64,000 nt of DNA from Acidobacteriota bacterium (GTDB lineage Bacteria; Acidobacteriota; UBA6911; RPQK01; JAJDTT01), in NCBI GenBank assembly GCA_965209055.1, contig OZ242374.1:5504001-5568000 (forward strand). Reading direction: 5' to 3'. Numbering within the stretch: the first letter of the stretch is position 1; the number at the start of each line of letters is the position of its first letter. The notes under the pieces were generated by a model. That model had not been told where the DNA came from. It searched no databases and saw only the letters and a list, made by a program, of their open reading frames with translations. Positions 2,325-59,863 of this stretch are shown here, one piece after another. A program made the position numbers and the translations under genes.

Positions 2325-2740
2325 GCCGCAAGAAACGAACCGTCATCAACCCGCCGGGGATGTTTCCCCCGGGCGGAGAATACTCCTACGCCGTGGGCGC
2401 CGGAGGCCTGCTCTTCATCGCCGGGCAGACCGCCTTCTCGCCCGAAGGAGAGCTGGTGGGAGAGGGCGACGCCGCCGCGCAGACGCGCCAGGTCTTCGAA
2501 AACATCGGCCGGGTCCTCCAAGGCGCCGGAGCCTCCTTTTCCGACGTGGTGGAATTCACCACCTATCTGGTGGGCGTGGATTCGGTGGCGCCCTTTCTGG
2601 CGGCCAGGCGGGAGTTGTTCCCTTCCCTCTATCCGGACGGGGACTACCCCACCAACACCCTGATCAACATCGAGTCCCTGGCCGGTTCCAAGGCCCTGGT
2701 AGAGATCAAGACCGTGGCGGTCCTGCCCGAACCGGACTGA
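2321..2740 (+). CDS. RidA/YjgF family protein
   Basis: YSYAV, LFIAGQ, QTRQVFENI, LVEIK motifs; ATGA overlap with the upstream gene. Confidence 0.85.
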   Translation: MSRKKRTVINPPGMFPPGGEYSYAVGAGGLLFIAGQTAFSPEGELVGEGDAAAQTRQVFENIGRVLQGAGASFSDVVEFTTYLVGVDSVAPFLAARRELFPSLYPDGDYPTNTLINIESLAGSKALVEIKTVAVLPEPD

Positions 2741-9907: not shown

Positions 9908-11233
<1,326 letters not shown>

Positions 11234-11293
11234 TCACCTCGAATTCATGCCGCCACGGGCACCGCATGAGTTTTTCGCCGTCCGCCCGTCGAA

Positions 11294-39579: not shown

Positions 39580-39683
39580 GTGGCTATTCAAGCACAAGCA
39601 ACCGTCGAGAAAAAGGGGCCTGAGACGGGATCGGGACGCACCCGCCGAGCGAAACCCGAAGTGAAGAATGAGGAATATCCTAA

Positions 39684-45300: not shown

Positions 45301-45559
45301 CGGAAGCCGTCGACGTGACCTGCTTGACCCCGGCAAGGCTTTGAACGGACTCCTCGATCCGGATACAGATTCCCTCCTCGACCTCCTCCGGCGCAGCGCC
45401 CGGATAGGCCACCGACACGCTGATCAGGTCCGTGGAGAACTCCGGGAAGACCTCTTTTCGAATCTCGGTAATGGAGAGGGCGCCGCCCACCAGGATCACG
45501 ACCATCAACAGGTTGGCCACGACCCCGTTGGATGCGAACCAGGCGACGAGTCCCTTCAT
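42305..45559 (-). CDS. RND efflux permease (AcrB-like), resident operon
   Basis: NGVVANLLM, GIVVDDAIVVGENI, RFRPIFLTS; start ATG 45559 with upstream GAGGTG. Confidence 0.92.
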   Translation of the reverse strand: MKGLVAWFASNGVVANLLMVVILVGGALSITEIRKEVFPEFSTDLISVSVAYPGAAPEEVEEGICIRIEESVQSLAGVKQVTSTASEGMGIVNVAILEGTDARELLDDVKGRVDAISTFPEEAEQPVIQEFIVRNQVINIAVSGPADERTLKRVAEQVRDEVASLPGITQVELSSARPYEVSIEVSEDALLRHGLTFDEVARAVRRSSLDLPGGSVRTEAGEILLRTKSQAYVGEEFRQLTLLSRPDGTRVLLGDVARVVDGFAETDQVARFDGQPAILVQVFRVGRQSALEIAAAVREYVKQKQLQLPEGLTLTTWKDDSRILRSRLNLLIKNGLAGLALVVLTLTLFLRVGLAFWVSLGIPISFMGCLLALPLLDVSISLISLFAFIVVLGIVVDDAIVVGENIFSQYEQGKPKLRAVIDGTQEMMIPVFFAVATTVAAFSPMLMIEGSTGKIMRVIPLVVLPTLVFSLVESLLILPHHLSHLRRSERLRKRGLSGLWNRFQDLISRQLKRFVKRVYEPFLRVAVEWRYLTAALGVATLVMVVGLILGGRIKFNFFPPVEADNVMAFLTMPQGTSAEVTGRALQRVERAALLLREELDSPSQGGGSASVFRHVLASVGEQPARVLQNRQSGNVSQFSGAHLGSVNIELAPSEERPRARDGRLISSTEIANRWRELTGTIPDAVELTYSASIFAAGAPINVQFSGPDLDQLQEAARRFKLKLNEYAGVYDIADSFRAGKQEVKLKIRPAAESLGLTQADLARQIRQAFYGEEVQRIQRGRDEVKIMVRYPSDRRRSLGQMEEMRIRTPEGGEVPFSVVADSELSRGFATIRRVDRNRSVSVTAEVDTQRANSNEILAELESGYLPSMLRQFPGLTYSLEGEQEQQSETIDGLLQGFGIALAAIFGLLAIPLRSYFQPLLIMSAIPFGLVGAFWGHRILGMDLSILSIFGIVALAGVVVNDSLILVDYVNRQRRAGVPLQESILTAGSARFRPIFLTSVTTFAGLTPLLMETSLQAQFLIPMAVSLAFGVVFSSPVILVLVPCTYMILEDLGRAARWLLGRPPVQEPEPPTLIAAPVKGGSPRN

Positions 45560-45563
45560 GGTG
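45549..45563. repeat. Left copy of the direct repeat flanking the insert
   Basis: AGTCCCTTCATGGTG; 13/15 identical to 56314-56328, exact core TCATGGTG. Confidence 0.7.
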
Positions 45564-45934
45564 ACACCTCGGAGCCGGAATCCGACTGAATCTGGTCCGC
45601 CACGCCGCCGGTAAGGGGCGCTGGAGTTTCGAGTTGTCGCGCCTTCACGAAGCGAAGACTCCCTTTGCCTGGCCGCAATGCACATCCAATCGTCCCGAAT
45701 CGAATTCGTTGCCTCCGATTCGTGACCACCATGGCGTTTGCTCCGATTTCGATATTCTACCTGTTTGCAGACGATGAGGGGTCGGGGGCTTGAGGCGCCC
45801 AACGCCGACGGCGCAAGGGCCGGCGCGGGCAGAGCCGGCAGACGCGTCGCCCCGGAATCTTGGAATCGGACGGCTCCGTCCCCGGGGAGAACACCGTTTC
45901 GGATCGCCGCCGGCGAAATGGCGACGGCTGTCGA

Positions 45935-47005
45935 CTATGGATTGACCGGACGCTGGTTGCGCTGGACGCCGCCGTCCCGGGGTTCCGGATAGAACTGCTT
46001 GCAATAGCGTCGAAAGGTTCCGATCTCGCCGTCGGACCGGCACAGTCTGGGGCGGGACAGGTACCGCTTCCGGCTCCAGATCTCCACATCCTGCAGCACG
46101 TCCCGCTTTTGTTGCCACAACATGAACCGGTTCATGAATTTGTTGCGCAGGCCCGGAGGAAGGAAACTCAGGCCCATGATCGGCCGTTTCGGTTTCCGCA
46201 TTTCCCGCACCTGCGCGGCGAGCACGACCTCGACAAACTTCCCGTCAACGGGCGTTGCGAGTACCCACAGGCGCATGTCCAGGGGGACGGATCGCTCGCG
46301 GATCTCGACGAACGAGTAGCCCAGTCCAAAGATGCGGGTGAAGGCGGAAATATCGACCGACATGTCCATGATCCCGCCAATGGTCTGGACCCGCTTGAAG
46401 TCAAAGTGGCCTTCGAGACAGGCGCCGTCGACGGTCACCCGCCCGATTCGGCTGACATTGTCATAGCCGTGCACGTACCGCAGGTGCGCCAAGTCCACGG
46501 CGTTCTCCGTCGTTTCCTGGGGATGGCCGGGAAACCGGACGGTCCGGAAGCCCAATTCGCTCCAGTCCGCTCCCGACGGCGGATCCTCGGGAAGGCTCCA
46601 TTGCGGCGGACGTCCGTCGATGCCCCACCAGGCGAACACCATGCCGAGAACCTCACGGATCTCGAATACCTTCAGCTTCGCGGCCTTCGGCGGCGGCGCA
46701 AAGGGAGTCGCGACACATTGGCCGCCGGCGTCGAACTCGTAGCCGTGAAACGGACAGACGAGACAGCCGTCGCGTACCCGGCCTCCGGCATCGGGCCCCA
46801 ATTCGGCCCCCAGGTGCGGACAGACCGCCTCGGCCACGCAGACGCGTCCTTCACCGTCGCACCAGGCGACGATTTCCTCGCCCATCCAGGTCTTCTGGAT
46901 CAGCTTTGCCCTGAGAATGGCCTCACGGCTGGAAACGAAGTACCAACCCTCGGGAAACGGAAGCAGCGAGGAGGCTTTGTCAGGCTCGAAATGTCGTTTT
47001 GCCAT
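45935..47005 (-). CDS. Rieske non-heme iron oxygenase, KshA/Neverland (cholesterol 7-desaturase)-like
   Basis: FPEGWY, CPHLGA...CPFHG Rieske ligands, ENAVDLAHLRYVH iron motif, C-terminal QDVEIW.RK.Y...P.L...DG....RR...QFY. Confidence 0.82.
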   Translation of the reverse strand: MAKRHFEPDKASSLLPFPEGWYFVSSREAILRAKLIQKTWMGEEIVAWCDGEGRVCVAEAVCPHLGAELGPDAGGRVRDGCLVCPFHGYEFDAGGQCVATPFAPPPKAAKLKVFEIREVLGMVFAWWGIDGRPPQWSLPEDPPSGADWSELGFRTVRFPGHPQETTENAVDLAHLRYVHGYDNVSRIGRVTVDGACLEGHFDFKRVQTIGGIMDMSVDISAFTRIFGLGYSFVEIRERSVPLDMRLWVLATPVDGKFVEVVLAAQVREMRKPKRPIMGLSFLPPGLRNKFMNRFMLWQQKRDVLQDVEIWSRKRYLSRPRLCRSDGEIGTFRRYCKQFYPEPRDGGVQRNQRPVNP

Positions 47006-47402
47006 TTTCCACCGAAGTTTCGTCGTCTGATGGCACCGATAGCCTCCAAGCCAAGTGGGAGAAAACGAAGCTACAATTCCATTCTATCCGTCATCGACGA
47101 CCCCATTTTTACTTCGGCCCGGTGACGCATCACACGCGGCTCGCAAATCTCCTGTCGCGACCCAGGCGATTTCACGTGGACCGAACCTCAGACTTGTCTA
47201 GGCAGCCATTTTTGCCAATGGTAGGATATAACGTCCTTTTTGCCGGAATTTAGTCACAGGCTTCTGCTTGCCTCAGTTCATGGATTCCCTCAAATCAGCC
47301 GTCCTCTTACAGCGTGCCTGTCGGCCGGCGAGACCTGGGATCAGCTTCGCGAAGCGGCCGGCGAATTCCCGGGCCGGGTCAGCTTCCGGCGGGTAGATCA
47401 CC

Positions 47403-48611
47403 ATGAGGAAGATACTCGGCTACCTGGTTGCGGTTGCCATTCTTGCAGGCTCCGTCTACCTGGCCTATTACCTGGTGTCGCTGGCGCCCGAACCGGAACG
47501 CACCGAGCCGCCTCCCCAGATTCCCTTTGCCCAGACCGGCCGGGTTGCGGCCGGCACCGGAGCCATCCCCGTCTATGGCGCCGGCACCGTACGGCCCAGC
47601 GCGGAAGTCGACATCGCTCCGCTCGTCAGCGGCAGCGTCGTCTGGTTGGAACCGGGTTTCCAGAGCGGCGGGCGGATCGAGTCCGGTCAGCCGATCCTGC
47701 GTATCGACAACGCCGACTATCTGCAACGCCTGCGCGAGGCGGAGGCCGAGCTCGAAGCCCGTCGGGTGGCCCTCGATTTGGCCCGGGAAAAAGGGACGTT
47801 CGCCCGCGCCGAATTCGAGGAGTACTCGCGCCAGCAACTCGAGGCGGGAGCTCCGGTGGGCGAACCGGGGCCCTTGGCGTTGGGGGAACCGGAAATCAAG
47901 GCGGCTCGGGCCGCGCTGCACCGTGTGGAGGTCCAGATCGCCGGCGCCGAGCTGGCCCTGTCCCGAACCGAACTGCGGGCGCCGTTTGACGGCTATGTGC
48001 GCAACGAATCGGTGGATACCGGGCAGTTCGTGTCCGCAGGCCAGACCGTTGGGCGGCTGATGGCGGCCGAGGCCGTCGAGGTGGCCGTGCCCCTGTCCGA
48101 CGCCAACGCCGCCATGATTCCAGGGCTTTGGAAGCTTCGCGCGGGAGACGCCGAACGGCGGGTGGCCGCCCGGGTGACCGCCAGGTTCGACGACGCCAGC
48201 TATGTTTGGAAGGGCTATGTCGACCGGGCTGAAGTCTCAGTCGACGAGCAGACGCGAACCATCGACGCGATTGTACGGGTGCCCAACCCTTTTTCGGCGG
48301 GTGTTCCGGCGGACGGGTCCGGCGATGCACCCCCGCTCCTGGTAGGCAAGTTCGTGGAGGTAAAGATTCAAGGTCTTGTACCGGAGAGCTATTTCCGGGT
48401 GCCGCGGGCTGCACTGCAAACCGGCGACGAGGTCTGGACAGTTGGTGAAGACCAGACGGTGAGTATTGTCCCGGTCCGCGTCTTGCAGCGGGCCAACGAC
48501 GAAGCCGTGGTGGTCGGCGCCCTGGAAGACGGGCAGTTGGCCATCACAGGCGGCATTCAATTCGTCACCGAAGGCATGGTGGTACAAACAGCGGCCGGTT
48601 CGGCGGAATGA
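47403..48611 (+). CDS. RND efflux membrane fusion protein (islet)
   Basis: N-terminal TM, lipoyl-like halves, RAPFDG, VD.QTRT, GKFVEV. Confidence 0.88.
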   Translation: MRKILGYLVAVAILAGSVYLAYYLVSLAPEPERTEPPPQIPFAQTGRVAAGTGAIPVYGAGTVRPSAEVDIAPLVSGSVVWLEPGFQSGGRIESGQPILRIDNADYLQRLREAEAELEARRVALDLAREKGTFARAEFEEYSRQQLEAGAPVGEPGPLALGEPEIKAARAALHRVEVQIAGAELALSRTELRAPFDGYVRNESVDTGQFVSAGQTVGRLMAAEAVEVAVPLSDANAAMIPGLWKLRAGDAERRVAARVTARFDDASYVWKGYVDRAEVSVDEQTRTIDAIVRVPNPFSAGVPADGSGDAPPLLVGKFVEVKIQGLVPESYFRVPRAALQTGDEVWTVGEDQTVSIVPVRVLQRANDEAVVVGALEDGQLAITGGIQFVTEGMVVQTAAGSAE

Positions 48612-51600
48612 GCCAAAACGAACAACAACCGGCGGAACCCGGCGGGCCAATCGCCTATATGGCGGGCAGCAGCGTCGCGGCCAACCTGCTGATGTTCGGC
48701 ATCCTCGCTGCGGGCCTCGTGTCTCTGACCGGCCTCGAGCAGGAAGCGTGGCCCGAGGTGCCCTTCTATCAGTTCGAAATCTCCGTGACGCTCCCTGGGG
48801 CAACGCCCGACGAGGTGGAGGAGGCCATCGTCGTCAAGATCGAGGATGAGGTCCGTGGACTGGCGGACGTGAAGGCGGTCAGGTCCGTAGCGGCCCCGGG
48901 AATGGCGTCCGTCAGGGTCGAATTCAGATCGGGTACGGACATGGGCGCGAAGAGGGATGAAATCGAGTCGGCGGTCGGGCGTATTCAGACGTTCCCGGGC
49001 GGAGCCGAGCGGCCCCGAATCCGGGAAATGACCAACGCCCAGAGCATGATGCGCCTCATCCTCTACGGCGACGTTCCCGAGCGCTCGCTGAAAGAACTCG
49101 CCTATCGTATCGAGGACGATCTCGCTTCCCTCCCGAACGTGTCCCAGGTCGAGACCAACGGTGTGCGCAACTACGAGATCTCCATCGAAGTGCCACTGCG
49201 GTGGCTACGGGCCGTTGGGCTAACTCTGACCGATGTCGCCAATACGATTCGTCGCGGTTCGCTGGACCTGTCTGCGGGCAGCATCAATACCGAGCAGTCC
49301 CAGGTGCGGATTCGGACCCTCGGTCAGAGCTACGATCAGCAGGATTTCGAGGAGATCGTCATCCTCGGCCGCGACGACGGCACAGCGGTGCGCTTGGGTG
49401 ATATTGCCGAGGTGCGCGACAGCTTCGAGGACTCGGATTTGATCGTGCGGCACCAGGGCCATCCCGCCGTGTTCGTTGAGGTTTCGCGAGCCGACGGCGA
49501 GAGGGTGATGGATGTGGCGCGCGCCGTTCGGGACCATGTTGCGAACGAGATAGCGCCCTCGCTCCCCGACGGCGTGGGCATCACTATCTGGAGCGACGAC
49601 TCTTCGGTATTCGTGGAGCGGGGCCTCCTTCTCCTCAAAAACGGATCCTTGGGGTTGTTGCTGGTCTTGTTCGCGCTTGGCCTTTTTCTCGAAGTCCGGT
49701 TGGCGTTTTGGGTCGCCGTCGGTCTCGGCGTTTCCGCGATCGGCGCCCTGGCCGCCATGATGATGTTCGACATCCCGCTCCATGAGATTTCGCTCTTCGC
49801 TTTCGTGCTCGCCATCGGAATCATCGTAGACGATGCGATCGTCGTGTCCGAGCACATTCACCTGGAGCGAATGCGCGGCACGCCGGGGGTTGTCGCGGCG
49901 ATCCGGGGTGCGCGACGAATCAAGGTGCCACTGATCTTCGCCGTGCTGACTACGGTCGTGGCGTTCGTTCCGCTGCTCTTCATACCCGCGGGCTTCGGAG
50001 AGGTCTGGAAGGCACTGCCCATCGTCGTCATTGCCACGCTGCTGTTTTCGCTGGTCGAATCGCTGCTGGTGCTGCCCAACCATCTGTCCCATCATCTGCA
50101 CGGCCCGGATTGGGTGCCCGGCACGAGCATCGAACGATTCGTCTCCCGGATCCAGAATCGTGTCGATTCCTGGTTGAACAGCTTTGTACAGGGGCCCCTG
50201 GATCGTGGGATACAGTTCGCGACGGACTGGCCTGAGGTGACGGTCTCGGGGGCGGTCGCGCTGCTCATCCTGAGCATTTCCCTCATTCCGGCCGGCATCG
50301 TCCCCACCACCTTCGCAACAGCGGTCGAAGGCGACTTCGCAATCGCCACCCTCGAGATGCCGGACGGAACGACCGCGGAGCAGACGTACGCAGTGGCGCA
50401 ACAGCTGGAATCAGCCGGTCGCCGGGCCATCGAGCGGCTTTCTGAAGGCCGGCCCGCGGATGCGCCTCCTCTGCTGTCCGGAGTTACAGTCGTCGTCGGT
50501 CAGCGTTCGCGGATCGAAACCGGGGGCCTCAATCCCTCGCCCACCCTGAACCCGGAAGCCAATGTCGCCACCATCGAGTTCAAGCTCCTGGGCGCGCAGC
50601 AACGGCGCATCACTTCGGGAGAAGTCGTGCAGGCATGGCGCGAGGAGGTGGGTGTCCTGCCTCATGCGCGCGCGGTCACCTACATCAGTGAGATCTACAC
50701 ACTGGGCAACCCGGTCGAGGTCGCGCTGTCCCACCCGGATCCGGAACGCCTGGTCGAGATCGCATCTTCCGCAGTCGCTGGCCTTGGCGGAGTCGGAGGC
50801 GTCTTCGACATACGCTCTGATCACACTCGCAGTATCCCGGAAGTTCAGGTGGGATTGCGTCCCGAAGCGCGCACCCTCGGCCTCACGCTTGATGATCTTG
50901 CCGGGCAGACGAGAGCCGCCTTCTTTGGCGTGGAGGCCGTGCGGGTGCAGCGAGGACGTGAAGAAGTTCGGGTTTATGTGCGGCTACCCGAGGAGCAGCG
51001 TAATGCGATCACCGACGTCGAGAGATACTGGCTCCGTACGCCAACCGGTGCCGACGTGCCGTTAAGCCGCGTGGCTTCGCTGAGTTCTGGCACATCGCCG
51101 CCGGCCATCCGGCGCCAAGACGGCCATCGCATTGTCACGGTTTCCGCTGATGTGGATGCCAGTGTGATTTCCGCCGCGACCGCCAATGACATTCTGGAGA
51201 ACACTATCCTCGCGGAACTCATCGAGGAAAACCCGGAACTCACGTACACCTTCGGAGGTGAACAGCAGCAGCAGCTCGACTCTTTGGGCGGTCTCTTCCG
51301 CGGATTCGTGATCGCGTTGCTCATGATCTTCGCGCTGCTGGCCATTCCGTTGCGCTCCTACACCAAACCGTTCATCATCATGGCCATCATCCCGTTTGGG
51401 TTCATCGGCGTGATCCTGGGTCACTGGGTCCTGGGGGTGGCGTTGAGCGCGGAATCCTTTGTCGGGATATTCGGCCTCGCCGGCGTGGTGGTGAACGATT
51501 CCCTGGTGATGATCGATTTTATCGATCAGAAGCTCAGGGAAAACACTCCGGTGCGAACCGCGATCATCGAGGGTGCGAAGGGACGATTTCGCCCGATCAT

Positions 51601-51787
51601 GCTGACTTCCTTGACCACCTTCCTCGGCTTCACCCCCCTTATTCTCGAAGACGCCATTCAGGCGCAGTTCTTTGTTCCCTTCGCCGCCTCGATCGGCTGC
51701 GGCATCCTCTTCACCACGACAATCATCATGTTTCTGGTGCCGGCGCTTTCCTCGTTCCATCTGCGCCTGACCTCGACGCGGGGCTGA
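48608..51787 (+). CDS. RND permease (AcrB-like, islet)
   Basis: VAANLLM, GIIVDDAIVVSEHI, RFRPIMLTS; ATGA overlap with the MFP. Confidence 0.92.
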   Translation: MSQNEQQPAEPGGPIAYMAGSSVAANLLMFGILAAGLVSLTGLEQEAWPEVPFYQFEISVTLPGATPDEVEEAIVVKIEDEVRGLADVKAVRSVAAPGMASVRVEFRSGTDMGAKRDEIESAVGRIQTFPGGAERPRIREMTNAQSMMRLILYGDVPERSLKELAYRIEDDLASLPNVSQVETNGVRNYEISIEVPLRWLRAVGLTLTDVANTIRRGSLDLSAGSINTEQSQVRIRTLGQSYDQQDFEEIVILGRDDGTAVRLGDIAEVRDSFEDSDLIVRHQGHPAVFVEVSRADGERVMDVARAVRDHVANEIAPSLPDGVGITIWSDDSSVFVERGLLLLKNGSLGLLLVLFALGLFLEVRLAFWVAVGLGVSAIGALAAMMMFDIPLHEISLFAFVLAIGIIVDDAIVVSEHIHLERMRGTPGVVAAIRGARRIKVPLIFAVLTTVVAFVPLLFIPAGFGEVWKALPIVVIATLLFSLVESLLVLPNHLSHHLHGPDWVPGTSIERFVSRIQNRVDSWLNSFVQGPLDRGIQFATDWPEVTVSGAVALLILSISLIPAGIVPTTFATAVEGDFAIATLEMPDGTTAEQTYAVAQQLESAGRRAIERLSEGRPADAPPLLSGVTVVVGQRSRIETGGLNPSPTLNPEANVATIEFKLLGAQQRRITSGEVVQAWREEVGVLPHARAVTYISEIYTLGNPVEVALSHPDPERLVEIASSAVAGLGGVGGVFDIRSDHTRSIPEVQVGLRPEARTLGLTLDDLAGQTRAAFFGVEAVRVQRGREEVRVYVRLPEEQRNAITDVERYWLRTPTGADVPLSRVASLSSGTSPPAIRRQDGHRIVTVSADVDASVISAATANDILENTILAELIEENPELTYTFGGEQQQQLDSLGGLFRGFVIALLMIFALLAIPLRSYTKPFIIMAIIPFGFIGVILGHWVLGVALSAESFVGIFGLAGVVVNDSLVMIDFIDQKLRENTPVRTAIIEGAKGRFRPIMLTSLTTFLGFTPLILEDAIQAQFFVPFAASIGCGILFTTTIIMFLVPALSSFHLRLTSTRG

Positions 51788-52005
51788 CGGCCGGTGGGGA
51801 AAGTGGCGCGCGCACCGAGGCCACACCGGAAGAACTGGCCTGCGAGGTTCCCGGTTGACAGGGCGAGTGGGGGAGGAGCGCCCACCGGAAGATCGGCCCG
51901 GGCGTAATCCAACCGAAACTCAACGATGGGAGCTGCGAAGCGACGCGTTCTCGCCGGGATGCATCACCCGTCGAATGCCACACTACCGTGTCTGCAGGCC
52001 GCCAA

Positions 52006-53058
52006 TTACCCCCGAAGAGGCCGCCGCGCCACGAAACAGTAGAGCGGTGTGAAAATACCGGCCCTGCCCCCGGCAACATAGGCGTTTGCGGTCCGATCCA
52101 GTAGCCCGACGACCTCCGTCGAGCCTTTCGGGAACGTACCGAGAAACTCGGCCATCCTGGATCCCCTCCTCACAACCTTGCGACCCATCGGGGTCCGGCG
52201 TAAAGCGCCGCCGAGCAGTCCGCCCCGGGTTTCCATGGGCTGATACCACGGCCTGACCGGACCGTGCTGGTCGCTGGCGAGGTCCAACCCTTCCATGACT
52301 TCGAATCCCGCGGTTTCGAGCGCCCGGTTGACCTCCCGGAACGTCGCGATTTCCTTGAGCGCGATGCCGTGCATGAGTTCTCGCTTGATGGCGCGATGCC
52401 GATCGTCGCCGGGATCGAACAGGTCCGTCATGCACATTTCCTGGCCCCAGAAGAGAGCTCCGGGTTTCAGGACACGGTAGATTTCGGCGAACGCAGCCAC
52501 CTTGTCGGCCGCGTGGCAGGTCGATTCGATCGCGTAGCCACGATCAAACGTCTTGTCCTTGATGGCGCTCATCTCCATGAAGCTGCACACCTGGCAGTCG
52601 GTCATGTGATCGAGCCCCGCAGCGGCGTTCAGCCGCTGGGCGTTGTTGCACTGGACTTCACTGACGTTGATTCCGACGACCCTTACATCGGCCTCGCGGG
52701 CGACCCGGCGCATCGGACCGCCGATCCCGCAGCCGATGTCGACTACCGTCATGCCCGGGCGCAGTTCGAGCTTGGAGATCATGAGTCGCTGGTGCCGGAT
52801 CTTGGAGTCCTCCAAGCTCTCGCCAGACGACAGCGGCGCGAAGTGCAGGGATTCTCCCCAACCGAAGACCATGAACTCGCTGCAAAGGTCGTAGTATTCC
52901 TTCACGGTCAGCGTGTGGTCGTAGAGCGCTTCGGAATCCTGGCGGGACTCCCTGTCGGTCCATCCTTCGAAGTCGTGCACGCGGCGGACGACGTTCGACC
53001 CGTCGAATGCGGCCTTCAGCGCATTGGATAGTTCGCGGAATCGCCTCACGGGCCTCAA
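52006..53058 (-). CDS. Sterol 24-C-methyltransferase (ERG6/SMT)-like
   Basis: YYDL...GWGESLHFAP, DIGCGIGGPMR, YAIESTCHA, EIYRVLKPG, C-terminal GG..GIFTP; likely TTG start 53058 after GGAGAG. Confidence 0.85.
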   Translation of the reverse strand: MRPVRRFRELSNALKAAFDGSNVVRRVHDFEGWTDRESRQDSEALYDHTLTVKEYYDLCSEFMVFGWGESLHFAPLSSGESLEDSKIRHQRLMISKLELRPGMTVVDIGCGIGGPMRRVAREADVRVVGINVSEVQCNNAQRLNAAAGLDHMTDCQVCSFMEMSAIKDKTFDRGYAIESTCHAADKVAAFAEIYRVLKPGALFWGQEMCMTDLFDPGDDRHRAIKRELMHGIALKEIATFREVNRALETAGFEVMEGLDLASDQHGPVRPWYQPMETRGGLLGGALRRTPMGRKVVRRGSRMAEFLGTFPKGSTEVVGLLDRTANAYVAGGRAGIFTPLYCFVARRPLRG

Positions 53059-53349
53059 GGCAGGCTCTCCAGTCGATCCAAGACGGCTAGGCGGGCAAGT
53101 GACGTGCTTACCCCGCATAGCTCAGCAAAGGGCGTGGCATGGGGCATGAAATCGTAGTAACAAGTTTGTTATTAGCAATTTACATGCTGGCCAACAATAC
53201 ACCCTGTGCCCCCACACTGTATCACAGCCGATCTCCCCAATCAGGCACCAAAGTTGGTGAATCATGCAGGCTGGCCCTTCCCCGGGGGACTTGGAATCGT
53301 AGCGCATGAACCAGGCAGGGACTTCCGGCAGCGGCGCGGAGGATTGCCT

Positions 53350-53544
53350 GCGGTCTCGGATCGGGTTTGTGACCTCAGCAACGCGGAACTTCAGCTTCTT
53401 GCCGGGATCAGCTGTCGGAAATGGATTGATGACGGGCTTGTGGTCTTTCGGCAATACTTCCAGCTTCAGGTGGTGCGCGATAAGCAGGAGATTGACGCCC
53501 AACTGAAGCTCCACCCGCCGATTCCCCAGGCACATGTGCGTGCC
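53350..53544 (-). pseudogene. C-terminal remnant of a second cytochrome P450
   Basis: GTHMCLG..VELQ..VNLLLIAHH...INPFPTA.P.KKLK.RV..VTNP parallels the C-terminus of 54122..56236. Confidence 0.8.
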
Positions 53545-53605
53545 TGGCACCCAATAACACTTAAAGGTGCGGATACAGACTCTTCAGCTTGGTCCGTGCA
53601 TCGCC

Positions 53606-54172
53606 TTCACCTTCGGAGGCGAACAGCAGCACCAGTTGGAGTCTCTGGACGCTCTCTACCGCAGCTTCGTGCTCGCCATGCTGGCGATTTTCGCGCTCCT
53701 TGCCCTTTCCCAGGGTTCCTATGTCAGACCGTTCCTCGTGATGGCCATCATTCCCTTCGGCCTGGTCGGCGTGGTCCTAGGCCACTACGTGTTGGGAGTC
53801 CCCATCAGTGCGGCATCGTTCATGGGCTTCTTCGGGCTCAGCGGCGTCACCATCAACGACTCGCTGGTCAGGAAGAATCTCATCGATCAGCGCCGCCGGG
53901 AGGGCTCCGATGGTAAGACTGCAATCATCGATGGCGCCAAGGGACGCTTCCGGCCCATCATCCTGACCTCGGTGACGACCTTTCTCGGCTTCACGCCCCT
54001 CATTCTCGAACGGGCCATCCAGGCGCAATTCCTGGTCCCCTTCGCCGCATCCCTCGGGGTCGGGATCATGATTACGACCGGGATCTTGTTGTTGCTTGTG
54101 CCGGCGCTGCTGGCCGTCAATCTACGCGCGAATTCCCGTCACCGGGCAGCGGGGGCCGTTCCGGTTCCCTAG
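53606..54172 (+). pseudogene. C-terminal remnant of a second islet-type RND permease
   Basis: FTFGGEQQ.QL...GAKGRFRPIILTS...AIQAQFLVPFAAS parallels the last ~180 aa of 48608..51787. Confidence 0.85.
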
Positions 54173-56236
54173 CCCGTCCGGTTCCTGCGGCGGTGCCGGC
54201 GCGTGCTTTCTTGCAGAGACCGGATTCGTGACTCTAACGACGCGGAGCTTGAGCTTCTTGTTGGGGGCGGCGGTCGGGAACGGATTGATGCCGAGCTTAT
54301 AGCTTGCCGGAGACACTTTCAGGTTCACGTGGTATGCGATGAGCAGAAGATTGACGGCCATCTGAAGCTCCACCCACGGCCGCCCCAAGCAGACGTGCGT
54401 ACCCAGGCCATAGGGAGCGTAGGCCCCCGGCTGCAAATGCTCTGCCCGATCCGGCAGGTATCGGTCGATGTCGAATTTCAGCGGATCCTTGAACAAGTCG
54501 CCGGAGTAGTGTGACGCGGTCTGAGAGATCAGAAGCCGCGTCCCGGGAGGTATCTCGAAGCCACTGACGATGCACGGGTTCATGACTGTTCTCAACTGCC
54601 ACGGAATCACGGGATACAGGCGTCCGGTTTCCAGCAGGAGCCGCTGTGTGACGTCGATGGTTTCGCGAGTGAAGTCCTCCGGCTTCGGTTCACGCCCGTC
54701 ACCAAAAAGCGCCTCGGCTTCTCGACGGATCCCCGAGTACACATCCGGGTTTCGAACCATGCAATAGACGGCGAAGCCGAGCGCGCTCCCCAGGTAGATA
54801 CTGGCGACCATCGCCGCGACGAACGGAAAGGTGAGGTCCGTTTCGGGCAGGAACTGCGGGTCGTTTCGATGGAGTTCGAGGATGGCATCGGCAATATCCA
54901 GTGGCTTCCCCTTCCTCTGCGCCGGGGTGTGCGATGCGATGATCTCCTCTTGGAGTTGAACGACCCTCTGGGCCCCCTGCTTCATCCTGGGCGTGGACAG
55001 CATGAATTTCGGCAACAGGCCCTGAACCCCAATGACCAGCGCACGATGTTCGTACTCAAGCAGTTCGTCGACGTAGTGGCTGCAATCCACTCCCATCGTC
55101 AGGCTCGAGACCTGACGGCTGATATGGGTCTGGAGGGTCCCGGTTGCGCGGAAAACGTCGCCTTCGTTCCAGGAGCCGATCGATTGCCGGCAATGGTGGA
55201 TCAACTCCGGAAGCCGCCGTGCAAGCGTGGCACGGGAATAGGCACCGTGCAGGGACTTGCGCATCTTGAAGTGTTCGGCGCCATCCATGCCGGGAAGTGT
55301 TCGGGACGCGCCGAACAAACGCTCCAGCCCCTCGATGTAGTCCTTCGACCGGAGATAGAATCGGCCGTGCCGGTTGACCCACTGATTCGTGTCCGGCCCC
55401 ATCAAGGCGACGACGGGTTGCTTGTTCATCTTGAAGGGAACCCGGACGACCGGTCCGTGCTTCCGGAAGATTTCGTGCATCGCCTTGGCCATATTCCCGG
55501 AACGGAAGTCACGCACCCGCAGGAGGTCGACGATCCCGAGCTTCGGAATCGGTTTGGCTTGGAGAACCCGGCGGGTCTTCGGGTTGACGCTGCTCTGCTT
55601 CACCGCCTCGGCAACCGACCGCCCCACCAGATCCAACTGGGCGATGATCTCGATCCGATTGAGCTTTTCCTCGTAGTCTTCGGGCGAAAGCACCAGCTTG
55701 AATCCGTCGCAGGTATGCATCAATGCAACGAGAATGGCGTCGTGGGGATCCGGAATGGCGTCGGTCAAGATGGCGTCCAGGACTCTTGCCCTGGCTTCCT
55801 GACGGATCTTGTTGTCGGACGCCGAATAGCTTCCCGAGCGCGAAACGTCGCGCGAGAGCATCCAGAATCCGCCGCTTCGATACTCGAGAATTCCCCTCTC
55901 CACCAAGCGGTCCAGCGTGGCCGTTACGATTTCCTCGGAACGGGCCGCGTTCCGTTCAATCCAATACTGTGCCTCGAAGAGTTCCTTGGACTCGGCGATT
56001 TCGCTGAGCGTCGGATCGAGCAGGTTGTCTCCCGTTGGAGTCGAATCTGTGATGTACAGCACTTGCAGATCGGTGTCGATGCGATTTGCCAGCGCGAGAT
56101 CTGCGATTACGGCGCCCGCCATGACGCAGGAGAAGTTCCAGCCTGGAACCATCTCCAAATAGCCGCTCCGTTCGTTGAGCATCAGGAGGATCAGTTCTTC
56201 GGAAAGGCGAATTGGGATCTCGTCGACTTTGTTCAT
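54122..56236 (-). CDS. GOLPH3/GPP34-domain-cytochrome P450 fusion protein
   Basis: N-terminal ~210 aa GPP34 pattern (LSEELILL, AGAVIADLAL..RI, PTGD.LLD, LVERGIL); P450 ETGR (ExxR), FDIDRY, heme motif YGLGTHVCLG. Confidence 0.82.
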   Translation of the reverse strand: MNKVDEIPIRLSEELILLMLNERSGYLEMVPGWNFSCVMAGAVIADLALANRIDTDLQVLYITDSTPTGDNLLDPTLSEIAESKELFEAQYWIERNAARSEEIVTATLDRLVERGILEYRSGGFWMLSRDVSRSGSYSASDNKIRQEARARVLDAILTDAIPDPHDAILVALMHTCDGFKLVLSPEDYEEKLNRIEIIAQLDLVGRSVAEAVKQSSVNPKTRRVLQAKPIPKLGIVDLLRVRDFRSGNMAKAMHEIFRKHGPVVRVPFKMNKQPVVALMGPDTNQWVNRHGRFYLRSKDYIEGLERLFGASRTLPGMDGAEHFKMRKSLHGAYSRATLARRLPELIHHCRQSIGSWNEGDVFRATGTLQTHISRQVSSLTMGVDCSHYVDELLEYEHRALVIGVQGLLPKFMLSTPRMKQGAQRVVQLQEEIIASHTPAQRKGKPLDIADAILELHRNDPQFLPETDLTFPFVAAMVASIYLGSALGFAVYCMVRNPDVYSGIRREAEALFGDGREPKPEDFTRETIDVTQRLLLETGRLYPVIPWQLRTVMNPCIVSGFEIPPGTRLLISQTASHYSGDLFKDPLKFDIDRYLPDRAEHLQPGAYAPYGLGTHVCLGRPWVELQMAVNLLLIAYHVNLKVSPASYKLGINPFPTAAPNKKLKLRVVRVTNPVSARKHAPAPPQEPDGLGNRNGPRCPVTGIRA

Positions 56237-56313
56237 GATCTTCCAATCCTGATCGGTTGCCGCAATAGCAGTGTGTCCGCCTGACGCCGGCCAGTTACGA
56301 AACCGTACGATGC

Positions 56314-56328
56314 AGCCCCGTCATGGTG
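56314..56328. repeat. Right copy of the direct repeat flanking the insert
   Basis: AGCCCCGTCATGGTG, includes the MFP stop codon. Confidence 0.7.
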
Positions 56329-57508
56329 CCTCCTGGGGGCTGGAATCCTGCTGAACCTGGACCTTCATGCCGTCGACGACCGTGGTCAGCGTGGCCAGAG
56401 AGACCAGTTCACCCTCCTTGAGACCGGAATCGATGAGCACTCTCTCCCGTTCCAGGCGCACGACGTTGACGCGGCGGAAACGGAGCTTGGATTCCGGGTC
56501 CACGACCAGCACCTGGTCCTCGCCTCGAAGGGCCGCCCGGGGCAACGCGACGACATCCCGCATCAAACGGCCCTGGATTTCAGCTTCCACGAACATGCCC
56601 ACGGCGAGAGGGGGACGATCCGGATCGGGCCCCCGGCCATAAGGATCGGCAACCTGCGCGATGGCGTGGATCATCCGGGTCTGAGGATCGATGGTCCCAT
56701 CGGTCCGCACGATTCTCCCGGCCCAGGAGTGGTTCCGCTGGCCGAACTCGGACCGCAACCGGACGACGGGTTGGCGCTTCTGCGAGGCGTCGCCGCGGTA
56801 GCTGAGGGGCAGATCCACATACGCCAGCTCCTCGTCGGGAAGCGGTAGCCGAATCTCCGCATAGTCCACGGAATAGATGGTGGCCATGGGAGTCCCCGGG
56901 GTCACGTATTGCCCGATATCCACGTTTTTTCGAAGGACCCGCCCCGCGAACGGAGCGCTGATCCGGGTCTTTTCCAGGTTCCGTTCGGCCTGGGCCAAAG
57001 CGGCCTGAGCGGATGACAGTGCGGCCCGGGCCCGGGCGATCTGGGGCACTCGCCGCAACAGGGGACTGGCCTCCCCTTTTCCCAGACTCTGCCACTCCTT
57101 CCGGGCGACCTCGGCCTGCGCCTCTTCCGTCTCCAGGGAGAGTTGCGCCTGCGCGATCTGGGCTTCGGCCTGAACCACCTGGAGTTGGTAGTCCGTGGAG
57201 TCGATCCTGAGAAGTTCAGCGCCCGCCTCGAAGAAGCCCCCGTCCGCGAGAGAGGGGGAGACTTGCAGGACCCGGCCCGCTATCTCGGGGAACAACGTGG
57301 TCTGGGTTCGAGGAGCCACAGTCCCCTGGGACCTGACCGTCAGGCGGAGTGTTTGAAGCTCTGCGGGAACGGCTCGGATCACCGGAACCGGAACCTCCGG
57401 AGGTCGAGTCTCGACCACAGGCCGATCATTGAATATCTTCCAGGCCCACGCCGAGGCAACCGCCAAAGTCGCCACGGGCAGCAATACCTTCAGCAGAAGC
57501 TTGATCAA
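56321..57508 (-). CDS. RND efflux membrane fusion protein (resident operon)
   Basis: SQGTV.P, ISAPFAG, ID.QTRM, VGMFVEA; TTGA overlap with the OMF. Confidence 0.9.
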   Translation of the reverse strand: MIKLLLKVLLPVATLAVASAWAWKIFNDRPVVETRPPEVPVPVIRAVPAELQTLRLTVRSQGTVAPRTQTTLFPEIAGRVLQVSPSLADGGFFEAGAELLRIDSTDYQLQVVQAEAQIAQAQLSLETEEAQAEVARKEWQSLGKGEASPLLRRVPQIARARAALSSAQAALAQAERNLEKTRISAPFAGRVLRKNVDIGQYVTPGTPMATIYSVDYAEIRLPLPDEELAYVDLPLSYRGDASQKRQPVVRLRSEFGQRNHSWAGRIVRTDGTIDPQTRMIHAIAQVADPYGRGPDPDRPPLAVGMFVEAEIQGRLMRDVVALPRAALRGEDQVLVVDPESKLRFRRVNVVRLERERVLIDSGLKEGELVSLATLTTVVDGMKVQVQQDSSPQEAP

Positions 57509-58971
57509 TTTCCATTCTCTCCGGCAAAAGTCACCGGGAGGAGCGCTCCCGGCGCGCCCGGCGGGGCGCCGGGGTCAAAGCCGCCTCCCAGCGCCAAGTG
57601 CAGATCGATCCGATTTTCGAGGAGGAGTCGTTGAAGAGAGAGGATCTGACTCCTGGAGTTGAGGATGCGACGGTCCGTCTGCAACACCACCAGCATGTCC
57701 CCAAGACCGTGGCGATAGCGAAACCGGGCCTGTTCGCGGGCCGTTGCGGCCTCGGCGACTGATTCCTCCAGTTCGCGCAACCGATCTCTTAGAAAACTCT
57801 CGACCGACAGGGCCGTCTCGACCTCTCCGAAGGCCTGCAGCACCGCACCGGCGTAGGTTTCCAGGATTTCCTGGGACCGGCCTTGGGCAATGTCGACCTG
57901 ACGCTTGAGACGCCCTCCCTGAAAAATGGGCTGGACCAGGTTGCCCAGCAGGCTCCAGACGGCGAAGTCCGCGTTCAACAGGCTCAACAGACCTTTGGTG
58001 GCCGTTCCGCCGGCCGTGGTGAGACTCAGGCGGGGGTGCAGAGCCGATTGAGCCTGAACGATTCCCACATCGGAGGCCAGCAGACGCCGCTGCGCCGCGA
58101 TGAGATCGGGCCGGCGCGTCAGGAGCTGCGAGGGGACACCGGCCGGAACACCGGAGGCAACCTCGGGAAGGCTTTTTCCAGCTTGAAGATCCCCGTCGGG
58201 ATAGCGTCCCGCCAGGAGTTCGACTTGGCGAATACCGCGGTCCAACTGCTCGCGGCGGAGATGGATGGCGGATTCGGCGGCAGAAATGTCCGCCTCCACA
58301 AGACTGATTTCCAGGGCCGGCCCCAGACCCGCCTCAAAGCGGTTGCGGAGCCAACGAGAGGTCGCCTCGAAACTGGCCACCATCTCGCGGGCCAGAGCCA
58401 GTTGAAGATTCGCCTCCGAACAGGCGAACCAAGCCTTGGCCGTCTGGCCCGCCAACGAATGCCTCGCCGCCGCAAGATCCGCCGCATGCGCGGAGGCGAC
58501 AGCACCGGCCAGGATTTCGCCGCTGCGGATTCTGCCCCAAAGGTCCGCTTCCCAGTTGATGTCCAGGGAGGCGCCCAGGTTGGTGAACGTGGCCCGAGGC
58601 ACCCGGCCTTCGAAACCCGGTATGGGAAAACCGATGAAGTTCTGCCGCTGACGGCGCCCGTTCAAGCTGAGTCCAACCGACGGCATCCGGTCGGCGCCGG
58701 CGAGCTCGGCCTCGATCAGGGCCGTCTCCAAGCGGGCGGCGACGGCCCGCAGTTGAGAATTGTGGCGGAGCGTTTCCTTGATCAACGCATCCAATTGCGG
58801 ATCCCGAAACTGTTTCCACCAATGGACATCCACCTGCCCCTCCGTTGCCGTCCCCGAATCCCACGCCTCTGGAATCGGCAGACTCGGCTGCCTTTCGGGG
58901 GGTGCGGCGGTCCGGACGCAGGCGGCTCCCGAAAGCAGCATGGCCAGCAAGAGAAAGTGAGTGGATCTCAT
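57505..58971 (-). CDS. Outer membrane efflux lipoprotein (OprM/NodT family)
   Basis: Lipobox-like GAAC, WWKQF.D, WEADLWG, RRPDL, LALGGG; start ATG 58971. Confidence 0.9.
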   Translation of the reverse strand: MRSTHFLLLAMLLSGAACVRTAAPPERQPSLPIPEAWDSGTATEGQVDVHWWKQFRDPQLDALIKETLRHNSQLRAVAARLETALIEAELAGADRMPSVGLSLNGRRQRQNFIGFPIPGFEGRVPRATFTNLGASLDINWEADLWGRIRSGEILAGAVASAHAADLAAARHSLAGQTAKAWFACSEANLQLALAREMVASFEATSRWLRNRFEAGLGPALEISLVEADISAAESAIHLRREQLDRGIRQVELLAGRYPDGDLQAGKSLPEVASGVPAGVPSQLLTRRPDLIAAQRRLLASDVGIVQAQSALHPRLSLTTAGGTATKGLLSLLNADFAVWSLLGNLVQPIFQGGRLKRQVDIAQGRSQEILETYAGAVLQAFGEVETALSVESFLRDRLRELEESVAEAATAREQARFRYRHGLGDMLVVLQTDRRILNSRSQILSLQRLLLENRIDLHLALGGGFDPGAPPGAPGALLPVTFAGENGN

Positions 58972-59624
58972 CTGCAGTTTTCCCGTGATGGAATCGGAGT
59001 CCGAAAGCCGGCTGCCAGAAACGAAACCAGTCGGTCGACGACCTCGTCCACCTGGGACGGTTCCGGAACATCCAGAAAAAGGTTCTCCAGATTCTTCCAG
59101 TCGGCGATCACGTGAAGCGTATGGGACATGGCCCCTACCATGAAATGGAATCTCCAGAACGCTTCTTCCCTGGAAAGATGGGGCAGCCTTGGACCCAACG
59201 CGCCGGAAAAACGCTCGATCACTTCGGCGAACTGTCCATAAATCATCTCCCGAATCGCTCCGTCGGGCGAGTTGAAGGCCCGGGAGAGAAGCTGCATGAA
59301 ACGCATGCCGCCCCTCTCCGGATCCCGGATCAGTTGTACCGGAGGTCGTACGAACGCCTCCAGGATCTGTTCCAGGGAGGGCTCCCCCGCACCGCCGCCT
59401 GCCTGGCAACGGTCCAGGAGCGCCAGGCGCTGCCGATTGAGAGGAGACAGCCGAAGGGCGAAGAGTTCCTGGATCAGTTGATCCTTGGAACCGAAATGAT
59501 AGTGCATGGCGGCCAGATTCACTTTGGCCCGGGAGGTGATCATCCGAACCGAGGTCGCAGAGAATCCCCGATCCGCAAAGAGCCCTTCCGCCGCATTCAG
59601 GATCCTGGACCTGGTGGCCAGCAT
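58968..59624 (-). CDS. TetR/AcrR family transcriptional regulator
   Basis: TRSRILNAAEGLFA..GF..TSVR.I...A.VNLAAMHYHFGSK HTH. Confidence 0.92.
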   Translation of the reverse strand: MLATRSRILNAAEGLFADRGFSATSVRMITSRAKVNLAAMHYHFGSKDQLIQELFALRLSPLNRQRLALLDRCQAGGGAGEPSLEQILEAFVRPPVQLIRDPERGGMRFMQLLSRAFNSPDGAIREMIYGQFAEVIERFSGALGPRLPHLSREEAFWRFHFMVGAMSHTLHVIADWKNLENLFLDVPEPSQVDEVVDRLVSFLAAGFRTPIPSRENCR

Positions 59625-59636
59625 GGTTCTCCCGGT

Positions 59637-59663
59637 AAAACAATCGTTTTAAACGTACGATGG
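59637..59663. promoter_or_regulatory. Putative TetR operator
   Basis: AT-rich near-palindrome AAAACAATCGTTTT followed by a similar AAACGTACGAT, just upstream of tetR. Confidence 0.45.
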
Positions 59664-59863
59664 TTCTACACAAAACGCGATACGCCTGTCAATTGGATGC
59701 CGGCCGGGACGCTTCGATCCGGGCGGACCGCCGGAAAAACCTCCCGGAGTCGAAACCATGCTCGTTTCGTGGCCGAAAACGCTCGGCGCGGTTGGCGCCC
59801 TTTTCGACCGTTCCGAGTCCGCCGTTCGACGGGGCTGCAGCGTGGCGCAAGGACGCCAGGGCG

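Follow-up and report, generated by a model that had tools for sequence, protein, structure and literature searches.

A GPP34-cytochrome P450 fusion of a sponge-associated Acidobacteriota bacterium, and its gene neighborhood, point to the probable tailoring and export of a sterol-like lipid

Introduction

The subject of this work is a gene that fuses a GPP34 domain, which has the fold of GOLPH3, to a cytochrome P450. The gene lies in a 64,000-nucleotide stretch of the genome of an Acidobacteriota bacterium (GenBank assembly GCA_965209055.1, contig OZ242374.1, positions 5,504,001 to 5,568,000 of the forward strand; called the window below, with positions counted from its first base), close to genes for a tripartite RND-type pump, a KshA-type Rieske oxygenase, and a homolog of sterol C-24 methyltransferase (SMT). 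The explanation that we favor, with somewhat better than even confidence, is that the fusion is a cytoplasmic P450 that modifies a sterol-like lipid, which the RND pump encoded beside it then exports, and that its GOLPH3-fold domain is an accessory for substrate or partner and not an effector that acts on phosphatidylinositol 4-phosphate (PI4P). We infer the sterol- or steroid-like class of the substrate from the enzyme families that recur with the fusion, and likewise the direction of transport, the role of the N-terminal domain, and the reaction.

The architecture is already known. Proteins with GPP34 and P450 domains were named GPP34_L in Microbiome in 2025; they make up 656 of 663 long GPP34 proteins, are recorded from sponge symbionts only, and are present in 85.5% of 76 Acidobacteriota genomes from sponge symbionts (PMC11706023). 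GPP34 was found to be expressed in 45 of 107 metagenome-assembled genomes (MAGs) from A. aerophoba and was proposed to be a secreted PI4P-binding effector that blocks phagosome maturation (PMC11706023). The fusion in the window is a member of this published but uncharacterized family, with which it shares the order GPP34-then-P450, a length class of about 670-700 aa, the phyla in which it is found, and the presence of several copies per genome. An earlier note on this DNA had stated that no characterized fusion of this kind was known. This holds in that no member has been biochemically characterized, but not for the architecture itself. The words sterol, methyltransferase, efflux, RND, and AcrB are absent from the main text of PMC11706023, and a literature search, with subscription journals and supplements outside its reach, found no paper that ties GPP34 or GPP34-P450 to sterols or efflux.

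Results

The fusion gene is intact and encodes two recognizable folds

The fusion gene (P0001; 54122..56236, minus strand) is an uninterrupted open reading frame (ORF) of 704 codons plus a stop codon, as the earlier note, which gave no strand, had described; the plus-strand reading of the same interval is full of stops. Both proposed domains were found by Pfam above their cut-offs. GPP34 (PF05719) matched residues 11-214 (55595..56206, minus strand) over profile positions 1-200 of 201, with E 6.8e-34 and 118.1 bits against a cut-off of 29.1. The p450 family (PF00067) matched residues 239-652 (54281..55522, minus strand) over profile positions 14-447 of 462, with E 3.5e-35 and 122.1 bits against a cut-off of 22.8, and the P450 domain is complete. 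NCBIfam had no equivalog for the fusion; the top match, pentalenene oxygenase, reached 72.7 bits where the cut-off is 800.

Predicted structures agreed with these matches. We built an AlphaFold2 model of the fusion from an alignment of 47 full-length family members (mean predicted local distance difference test score, pLDDT, 88.6; predicted template modeling score, pTM, 0.85), in which disorder was predicted only at residues 1-4 and 676-704. In Foldseek, this model matched the P450 structures CYP184A1, CYP120A1, CYP51, BM3, and CYP46A1, with template modeling (TM) scores, normalized by target, of 0.74-0.85. The N-terminal domain was also modeled by itself (pLDDT 86.7), and all eight of its PDB matches at E ≤ 1e-3 were GOLPH3 or Vps74 (TM score 0.59-0.70, E down to 7e-8); the next match had an E value of 0.34. 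A search of the PDB with the sequence of this domain found GOLPH3 (3kn1, E 8.6e-8). The N-terminal region, which the earlier note had called GPP34-like, thus matches both the profile and the fold.

The residues expected of a heme-thiolate P450 are invariant. E536 and R539 of the E536-x-x-R539 motif and C616 of the heme loop (YGLGTHVC616LG) were the same in 47 of 47 aligned members; the codon of Cys616, the heme thiolate ligand, is at 54389..54391 (minus strand). The disordered C-terminal tail (residues 676-704; 54125..54211, minus strand; pLDDT <50) was found only in the closest acidobacterial relatives, most homologs being 671-675 aa long, and it overlaps the remnant of an RND gene on the opposite strand that is described below.

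The fusion is not an assembly accident, because both Pfam domains were present in all of the 120 best homologs listed (69-98% identity) and because a 3346-base contig from an independent sequencing run (X5) covers 52844 to 56188 with 39 differences. A search of 1.84 billion cluster representatives gave 18,795 matches at E ≤ 1e-3 and 345 at E ≤ 1e-30, and there were dozens of full-length fusions at 27-61% identity among the 345.

The fusion is encoded with an RND pump and enzymes of sterol and steroid families

A complete tripartite RND pump (permease, adaptors, and outer-membrane channel) is encoded around the fusion. Directly upstream, on the same strand, is the gene for periplasmic adaptor 1 (395 aa; 56321..57508, minus strand; TIGR01730, 159.8 bits against a cut-off of 94.9), preceded by that for an outer-membrane efflux channel (722 aa; 57505..59673, minus strand), and the end of the channel gene overlaps the start of the adaptor gene by 4 bases. 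The NodT-type part of the channel is at residues 242-698 (TIGR01845, 264.6 bits against a cut-off of 210; Pfam OEP); before it are about 240 extra N-terminal residues, to which L003 and L004, two of the related loci described below, align only in part. On the other side of the fusion are an AcrB-type RND permease (1059 aa; 48608..51787, plus strand; Pfam ACR_tran, E 1.1e-155) and periplasmic adaptor 2 (402 aa; 47403..48611, plus strand; TIGR01730, 145.5 bits against a cut-off of 94.9), which has syntenic orthologs. Both adaptors and the channel thus score above their NCBIfam cut-offs.

Two enzymes of sterol and steroid families are encoded with the pump. The SMT homolog (370 aa; 52006..53118, minus strand), downstream of the fusion and convergent with the permease, matched Pfam CMAS and Sterol_MT_C (E 3.2e-16). 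The KshA-type Rieske oxygenase (356 aa; 45935..47005, minus strand) matched KshA_C (E 7.9e-26) and Rieske (E 2.2e-15). Each is the single match to Sterol_MT_C or KshA_C in the genome of this bacterium, and both are in this cluster. A plus-strand ORF at 45860..47125 matched no family and was rejected; the real gene there is that of the minus-strand Rieske oxygenase. Functional SMTs have the motifs GWGxxFHF (Region I) and DxGxGxxGP (Region II) (preprint 10.64898/2025.12.19.695621). Region II is exact in the SMT of the window (DIGCGIGGP), whose Region I (GWGESLHF) has Leu in place of the first Phe.

Parts of this neighborhood recur in distant bacteria. We examined 23 related loci in MAG records labeled Acidobacteriota/Bryobacterales, Aminicenantes, Pseudomonadales/Gammaproteobacteria, Rhodothermales, and Nitrospirales (five phylum-level labels), and looked for neighbors by tblastn with the proteins of the window and the Rieske oxygenase of the Rhodothermales locus L020. 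Four loci (L001, L012, L013, and L019) are cut by contig ends. Most of the length of the fusion was matched in 22 of the 23, at 48-95% identity. An ortholog of the RND permease was beside the fusion in 18 of the 23 loci (63-97% identity), a KshA-type Rieske oxygenase in 12 (46-71%), and an SMT in 10 (53-96%).

Two loci that lack the pump of the window are the most informative. L020 has neither pump nor SMT; a KshA-type Rieske oxygenase and a flavin adenine dinucleotide (FAD) oxidoreductase are encoded directly upstream of its fusion on the same strand, and the surrounding genes are housekeeping genes for pyrimidine synthesis, phosphoribosyl pyrophosphate synthesis, and ribosomal protein L25. 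The window's pump is also absent from the Nitrospirales locus (L022/L035), where the fusion is 48% identical to that of the window. Within 17 kb of the fusion, L035 encodes an ERG4/ERG24-type sterol reductase, a true CYP51 (E 1.5e-102 to the CYP51 structure 6mcw), a KshA_C protein, an SMT, a fusion of squalene epoxidase to oxidosqualene cyclase, and an MMPL transporter with a sterol-sensing domain. Because CYP51 is encoded separately in L035, the fusion would be an additional tailoring enzyme and not the 14-demethylase. The squalene epoxidase and oxidosqualene cyclase of L035 are in one 1152-aa ORF (2513-5971) that overlaps the end of the CYP51 gene in a compact sterol cluster.

Transporters of the RND superfamily are known for polycyclic lipids, namely BstA of Methylococcus for sterols and HpnN for hopanoids. 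The pump of the window resembles these by context, as an RND-superfamily transporter beside sterol-type enzymes, and L035 has the MMPL transporter with its sterol-sensing domain. Unlike them, the pump of the window is a complete AcrB-type system in three parts, for which two adaptors and an outer-membrane channel are encoded.

There are also similarities to the bacterial sterol clusters of sponge metagenomes (Brown et al. 2023, PMC10070321; preprint 10.64898/2025.12.19.695621). The SMTs of those clusters have Sterol_MT_C and the Region I and II motifs, as does that of the window, except that the window has GWGESLHF in place of the GWGxxFHF of functional SMTs. L035 resembles the clusters in having a cyclase, CYP51, a reductase, and a Rieske oxygenase, whereas the genome of the window has no cyclase. 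The texts of PMC10070321 and of the preprint contain no mention of P450, GPP34, or efflux.

The GPP34 domain lacks the PI4P pocket and is acidic

The GPP34 domain shares its fold and core motifs with human GOLPH3 and yeast Vps74 (3kn1, 9qpq, and 2zih) at about 21% identity. It differs from them in lacking the N-terminal extension, in being fused to an enzyme, in belonging to an organism that has no Golgi, and in being acidic where GOLPH3 has a basic pocket. The PtdIns4P pocket of GOLPH3 consists of W81, R90, R171, and R174; alanine pairs there abolish binding, and R174 contacts the anion (PMC2806290). In the HMMER alignment to GOLPH3, W81 corresponds to W33, R90 to Ala40, R171 to Glu, and R174 to Val, with one of the four pocket residues kept. 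The equivalents of R171 and R174 adjoin a 10-residue gap beside helix 100-113, and a shifted gap could place Arg99 at R171, for two of four at most; the R174 equivalent (Val or Glu) is not kept under either placement. The pocket Trp is kept in the clade of the window's fusion and replaced in most other branches of the family, including both paralogs in the same genome.

The two domains are of opposite charge. The GPP34 domain has an isoelectric point (pI) of 4.5 and a net charge of -16, and the domain is net negative in 47 of 47 family members (median pI 4.69). The P450 domain has a pI of 9.43 and a net charge of +12 (family median 9.17, net positive in 41 of 47). The acidity of the GPP34 domain makes it a poor fit for binding an anionic lipid. 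No signal peptide or transmembrane segment was found in the fusion; the N-terminus forms the first helix of the fold, and the sole hydropathy peak is the buried I-helix. A prediction of a complex between the GPP34 half and the P450 half gave scores of 0.00, 0.38, and 0.00, which we used as evidence neither way.

The missing pocket residues, the acidic domain, and the lack of a signal peptide or transmembrane segment speak against a PI4P effector and also against a membrane anchor that acts by simple electrostatics. Based on these features, we conclude that the GPP34 domain, to judge from its sequence and that of its relatives, is probably not a PI4P-binding membrane anchor here and is an acidic accessory tied to a basic P450.

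The published hypothesis, in which GPP34 proteins are secreted effectors that bind PI4P of the host and prevent phagosomes from maturing, with some help from the P450 (PMC11706023), is in our view very unlikely to apply to this fusion. It would account for the recorded restriction of the family to symbionts of sponges and corals and fits the expression found in A. aerophoba; the fold is truly GOLPH3-like, the pocket Trp is kept in the window's clade, and the genes directly upstream are those of an outer-membrane channel and an adaptor. These upstream genes, however, encode an RND-type adaptor and a NodT-type channel that go with an RND permease and not with a type I ABC exporter. We rejected export of the fusion through them by a type I route, since the adaptor and the channel are both of RND type and an ABC exporter is lacking. 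A heme enzyme of 78 kDa that depends on electron donors would be an unlikely secreted effector, and the conserved neighbors encode lipid-tailoring enzymes. The neighbors, the pocket residues, and the charges all point away from the proposal made for GPP34_L.

The earlier note had suggested that GPP34 may target the P450 to membranes or lipids. A version of this idea, in which the domain brings a soluble P450 to a membrane-embedded substrate like the N-terminal helix of eukaryotic P450s, we consider unlikely. GOLPH3 and Vps74 are peripheral membrane proteins, and GOLPH3 has a projecting beta3/beta4 hairpin that contributes to membrane binding or oligomerization and is required for PtdIns4P binding (PMC2806290), and beta hairpins were predicted at residues 117-127 and 136-146 in both the full-length and the N-domain models. 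Membrane lipids are the likely substrates, and the pump, as the partner of the enzyme, is also located in the membrane. Bacterial inner membranes, on the other hand, are anionic, and it is the P450 half of the fusion that is basic, whereas the N-terminal domain is strongly acidic and has not kept the basic pocket for a lipid headgroup. Of the lipid-related role suggested in the earlier note, a sterol-related role is backed by gene context; targeting to membranes or PI4P by the N-terminal domain is not supported by the pocket residues and charge. The delivery of substrate, which the note had also raised, may be a function of this domain.

We find it extremely unlikely that GPP34 is a built-in redox partner or effector on the proximal face of the P450, which would be by analogy with P450-reductase fusions (an analogy raised in PMC11706023). 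The pTM of the full-length model suggests a defined mutual arrangement of the two domains, which would fit such a partnership. Acidic ferredoxins or cytochrome b5 dock on the basic proximal face of P450s, and the pairing of an acidic domain with a basic P450 recalls this docking. Nevertheless, residues 1-238 contain no flavin, Fe-S, or heme-binding Pfam family and the N-terminal domain has only two Cys residues (0-9 across the family), which led us to reject a redox role; its sole structural relatives, GOLPH3 and Vps74, have no cofactor. The fusion is like those of the P450 BM3 type in having a P450 and a second domain on one polypeptide and unlike them in that its partner domain is N-terminal, has the GOLPH3 fold, and lacks a cofactor-binding family.

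We infer that the role of the GPP34 domain is to handle a hydrophobic substrate or to dock the enzyme to a partner. In two genomes, GPP34 has a Rieske domain as its fusion partner, and short GPP34 genes are frequently no more than five genes away from a P450 (in 8 of 13 and in 17 of 19 genomes; PMC11706023). Because GPP34 accompanies two unrelated types of oxygenase, P450 and Rieske, a role with substrate or partner fits better than a redox role. The Rieske fusions and the proximity of short GPP34 genes to P450s both agree with GPP34 as a domain that serves oxygenases of hydrophobic substrates.

The P450 belongs to a clade with an altered I-helix

The solved sequences nearest to the P450 domain were CYP51, CYP24A1, CYP120A1, CYP4B1, CYP170A1, and CYP46A1, with E values of 1e-18 to 1e-14. 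These are too distant for a reaction to be assigned. The best match, CYP51 (sterol 14-alpha-demethylase, 6mcw, E 5.5e-18), shares the overall fold. We rejected the identification of the fusion as a CYP51: the true CYP51 that coexists with a fusion in L035 matches 6mcw far better, as noted above, and the I-helix differs, with ASIYLG in the fusion opposite AGHHTS of CYP51 in the HMMER alignment to 6mcw.

The I-helix (residues 469-495; 54752..54832, minus strand; a helix in the AlphaFold2 model) has lost its acid-alcohol pair. In the family alignment, the window has VASI-YLGS where the majority has AG(L)(D/E)T, and is one residue shorter. We made a quick IQ-TREE search with 56 fusions, in which support was from the Shimodaira-Hasegawa-like approximate likelihood ratio test (SH-aLRT) only; locus L023 was left out of the alignment because of its stop codons. 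A split with SH-aLRT 100 separated 21 rows, including the window, from 35. All 21 rows on the side of the window have the one-residue gap and lack the acid-alcohol pair (19 with Tyr, 2 with Asn). The 35 others comprise 21 with Asp-Thr, 5 with Glu-Thr, 5 with His-Thr, and 4 with Asp and no Thr. The Tyr clade holds all 22 full-length fusions of the related loci, and the two paralogs in the genome of the window have Asp-Thr and His-Thr.

In P450s, loss of the acid-alcohol pair is associated with oxygen activation assisted by the substrate, with substrates of the peroxide type, or with chemistry other than hydroxylation. Because the pair is replaced by Tyr together with a one-residue deletion, the chemistry of the window's clade is probably not standard proton-relay hydroxylation; we regard this as a flag for unusual chemistry and not as an assignment. 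A bolder proposal, which we rate as improbable, is that the Tyr-clade enzyme is not a hydroxylase at all and carries out a desaturation, a rearrangement, or a partner-free conversion of sterol peroxides on sterols of the host. The enzyme, the Rieske oxygenase, and the SMT together would modify sponge sterols, which the symbiont would be unable to make for itself, and the products would be pumped out again; the GOLPH3-fold domain would be a lipid-handling module of ancient origin that does not read PI4P.

The fusion is in a mobile module that carries a recombination scar

Fusions from Acidobacteriota, Pseudomonadota, and Rhodothermota share 67-72% identity. The inner clade of the tree mixes members of different phyla; in it, for example, a Rhodothermales protein groups with proteins named Bryobacterales (starred support). 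Because of these features and the recombination remnants beside the gene, we conclude that, by sequence comparison, the fusion is in a horizontally mobile module.

The spacer of 1 kb between the fusion and the SMT gene (53119-54121) is a mosaic of two gene stumps and a third segment. The first stump is the 3' remnant of an RND permease gene (53604..54116, plus strand); the ORF there, 53567..54172, matches only positions 838-1017 of ACR_tran. It has 90-92% DNA identity to the intact permease genes of L002-L004, SMT-less relatives in which the permease faces the fusion, and 95% to that of L001. The second stump is the 3' remnant of another GPP34-P450 gene (53246..53545, minus strand), with a tblastn identity of 53% to residues 612-697 of the fusion. 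At the DNA level it matches the 3' end of the fusion gene of L006 at 90% identity, and the fusions of the other 20 matching loci at 71-79%. The remaining segment, 53119-53245, is 98% identical to L008. From these identities the spacer is, as we read it, a recombination scar: a cassette with the SMT gene and its own versions of the fusion, permease, and adaptor genes would have entered a resident cluster without an SMT by recombination, with both stumps left behind. L008 has the same layout, with most of the scar deleted. The arrangement shows the SMT apparently moving as a plug-in to a P450-pump core.

The module was present in sponge metagenomes. Twenty sequencing runs from nine studies contain part of 52000-59700, and we compared four of these, each from a different study, labeled sponge metagenome, and available as contigs. 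Run X5 covers the region with the 3346-base contig described above, which includes the scar, and with a 6254-base contig (56165-59700, 60 differences). Runs X15 and X19 cover the fusion at about 96% identity, and X13 gave short pieces only. The near-identical contigs in sponge-metagenome runs of separate studies indicate a sponge-associated habitat.

Sterol tailoring, detoxification, and the source of the substrate

Taken together, these results fit a model in which the fusion is a cytoplasmic heme-thiolate P450 with an N-terminal GOLPH3-fold domain and one enzyme of a mobile module that would tailor a sterol- or steroid-like lipid and export it through the tripartite RND pump. The KshA-type Rieske oxygenase would be a co-tailoring enzyme, and the SMT an optional one.

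This model would need a substrate from outside the cell. No oxidosqualene cyclase was found in the genome, a single contig of 6.08 Mb with a completeness of 98.4% and a contamination of 7.4%; TIGR03463 had no match, and PF13243 had only a 26.8-bit partial match in a 432-aa frame. Because of this, a sterol substrate, if the model is right, must have an outside source, probably the sponge host or its food.

The missing cyclase is one of several points that weigh against a sterol-tailoring function. The P450 resembles sterol P450s only remotely (20% identity, E about 1e-18), and its structure is just as close to those of fatty-acid P450s (CYP184A1 and BM3, in Foldseek). The SMT departs from functional enzymes at two Region I positions (F89L and T78S, yeast numbering, in a manual alignment), and some sponge-metagenome SMTs are inactive in vitro (preprint 10.64898/2025.12.19.695621). 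The SMT is not obligatory either: among five genomes with an SMT-less fusion locus, four have no Sterol_MT_C protein anywhere and one has it about 15 kb away. Of five other genomes that carry an SMT, only two were found to have a cyclase. The best scores of the permease are to multidrug RND subfamilies (HAE1-like) and fall below the NCBIfam permease cut-offs. There is no gene for a redox partner in the cluster, and the two paralogous fusions of the same genome are not beside pump or SMT genes.

Some of these points would be expected if the module served detoxification, with the P450 and the Rieske oxygenase oxidizing toxic hydrophobic compounds of the sponge holobiont, a multidrug-type pump expelling them, and the link to sterols being incidental. 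The pump is the most constant neighbor and the SMT is optional, the permease is multidrug-like, and the P450 fold is equally near to fatty-acid and xenobiotic P450s. We nevertheless consider detoxification unlikely. All of the enzymes that recur with the fusion are of sterol or steroid families (KshA_C Rieske and Sterol_MT_C), L035 has a complete set for sterol synthesis with CYP51 and a transporter with a sterol-sensing domain, and the conservation of 67-72% across phyla would suggest one defined substrate. On this evidence we favor tailoring and export of a sterol-like lipid.

Paralogs and other genes of the same genome and of related loci

Two further GPP34-P450 genes are present in the genome of the window. 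In the interval C1:2846633-2849806 (L030 9633-12806), one paralog is 35% identical to the fusion and has a CYP51-like His-Thr I-helix. A sulfotransferase gene (Sulfotransfer_3, E 1.8e-36) begins 13 bases after it on the same strand, and an FAD oxidoreductase and an O-methyltransferase are encoded further on; sulfated sterols are classic sponge metabolites. The third fusion, at C1:362728-364824 (L029 7728-9824, minus strand), is 33% identical, has a canonical Asp-Thr I-helix, and has no pump or SMT gene nearby; its neighbors include a peptidase C69 and a luciferase-like monooxygenase.

Relatives of genes from other loci are also found away from the cluster. An 86%-identical ortholog of the FAD (amine-oxidase type) oxidoreductase of L020 is encoded at C1:3274389-3275783, and this degree of identity is another apparent sign of cross-phylum transfer of module parts. 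Three homologs (57-63%) of the Nitrospirales MMPL transporter with a sterol-sensing domain are encoded at C1:535565-537847, 117656-119938, and 2554337-2556547.

Within the window, a second RND permease gene (1165 aa; 42305..45802, minus strand; identified by Pfam and tblastn) encodes a protein 40% identical to the first permease and is syntenic in acidobacterial relatives; its membership of the module is uncertain. At 37867-40776 is a gene for a 969-aa protein, the C-terminal half of which is a GMC oxidoreductase, weakly like cholesterol or pyranose oxidases and far below the cut-offs.

Three related loci have unusual copies. In L023 (a Candidatus Azotimanducaceae MAG), 8001-8597 matches the GPP34 part only (60% identity, residues 9-209) and contains stop codons, so that it looks like a decayed copy; a homolog of the KshA-type Rieske oxygenase is about 4 kb upstream of this remnant. 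In L005 (Bryobacterales), the permease beside the fusion (10197-13242) aligns in three pieces in different frames and may be frameshifted, degraded, or affected by assembly errors. L009 (Pseudomonadales) has a second, divergent GPP34-P450 (4-901, 41% identity), which is encoded on the other strand from the main copy and about 7 kb upstream of it.

Discussion

GPP34-P450 genes are among the most symbiont-specific genes of the sponge microbiome, and the sole published idea of their function is manipulation of the host phagosome. Our analysis offers an alternative that is directly testable, namely the tailoring and export of a sterol-like lipid, and gives the first concrete context for bacterial GPP34 domains. 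New here are the missing PI4P pocket, the pairing of an acidic with a basic domain, and the clade-specific change in the I-helix, as well as the absence of a cyclase from a near-complete genome, the optional SMT, and the recombination scar. The P450 clade with its atypical active-site helix is flagged for enzymology.

The proposed function bears on a long dispute about whether the unusual sterols of sponges, and the fossil record of 24-isopropylcholestane that has been read as the earliest animal biomarker, come from the sponges or from their bacteria. A symbiont with an SMT, steroid-type oxygenases, and an exporter and with no cyclase would modify the sterols of its host, a route not considered in the papers cited here. 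If the non-hydroxylating chemistry suggested for the Tyr clade were true, part of the odd 'sponge' sterols, including side-chain alkylated precursors of biomarkers, would be made by a horizontally shared bacterial module.

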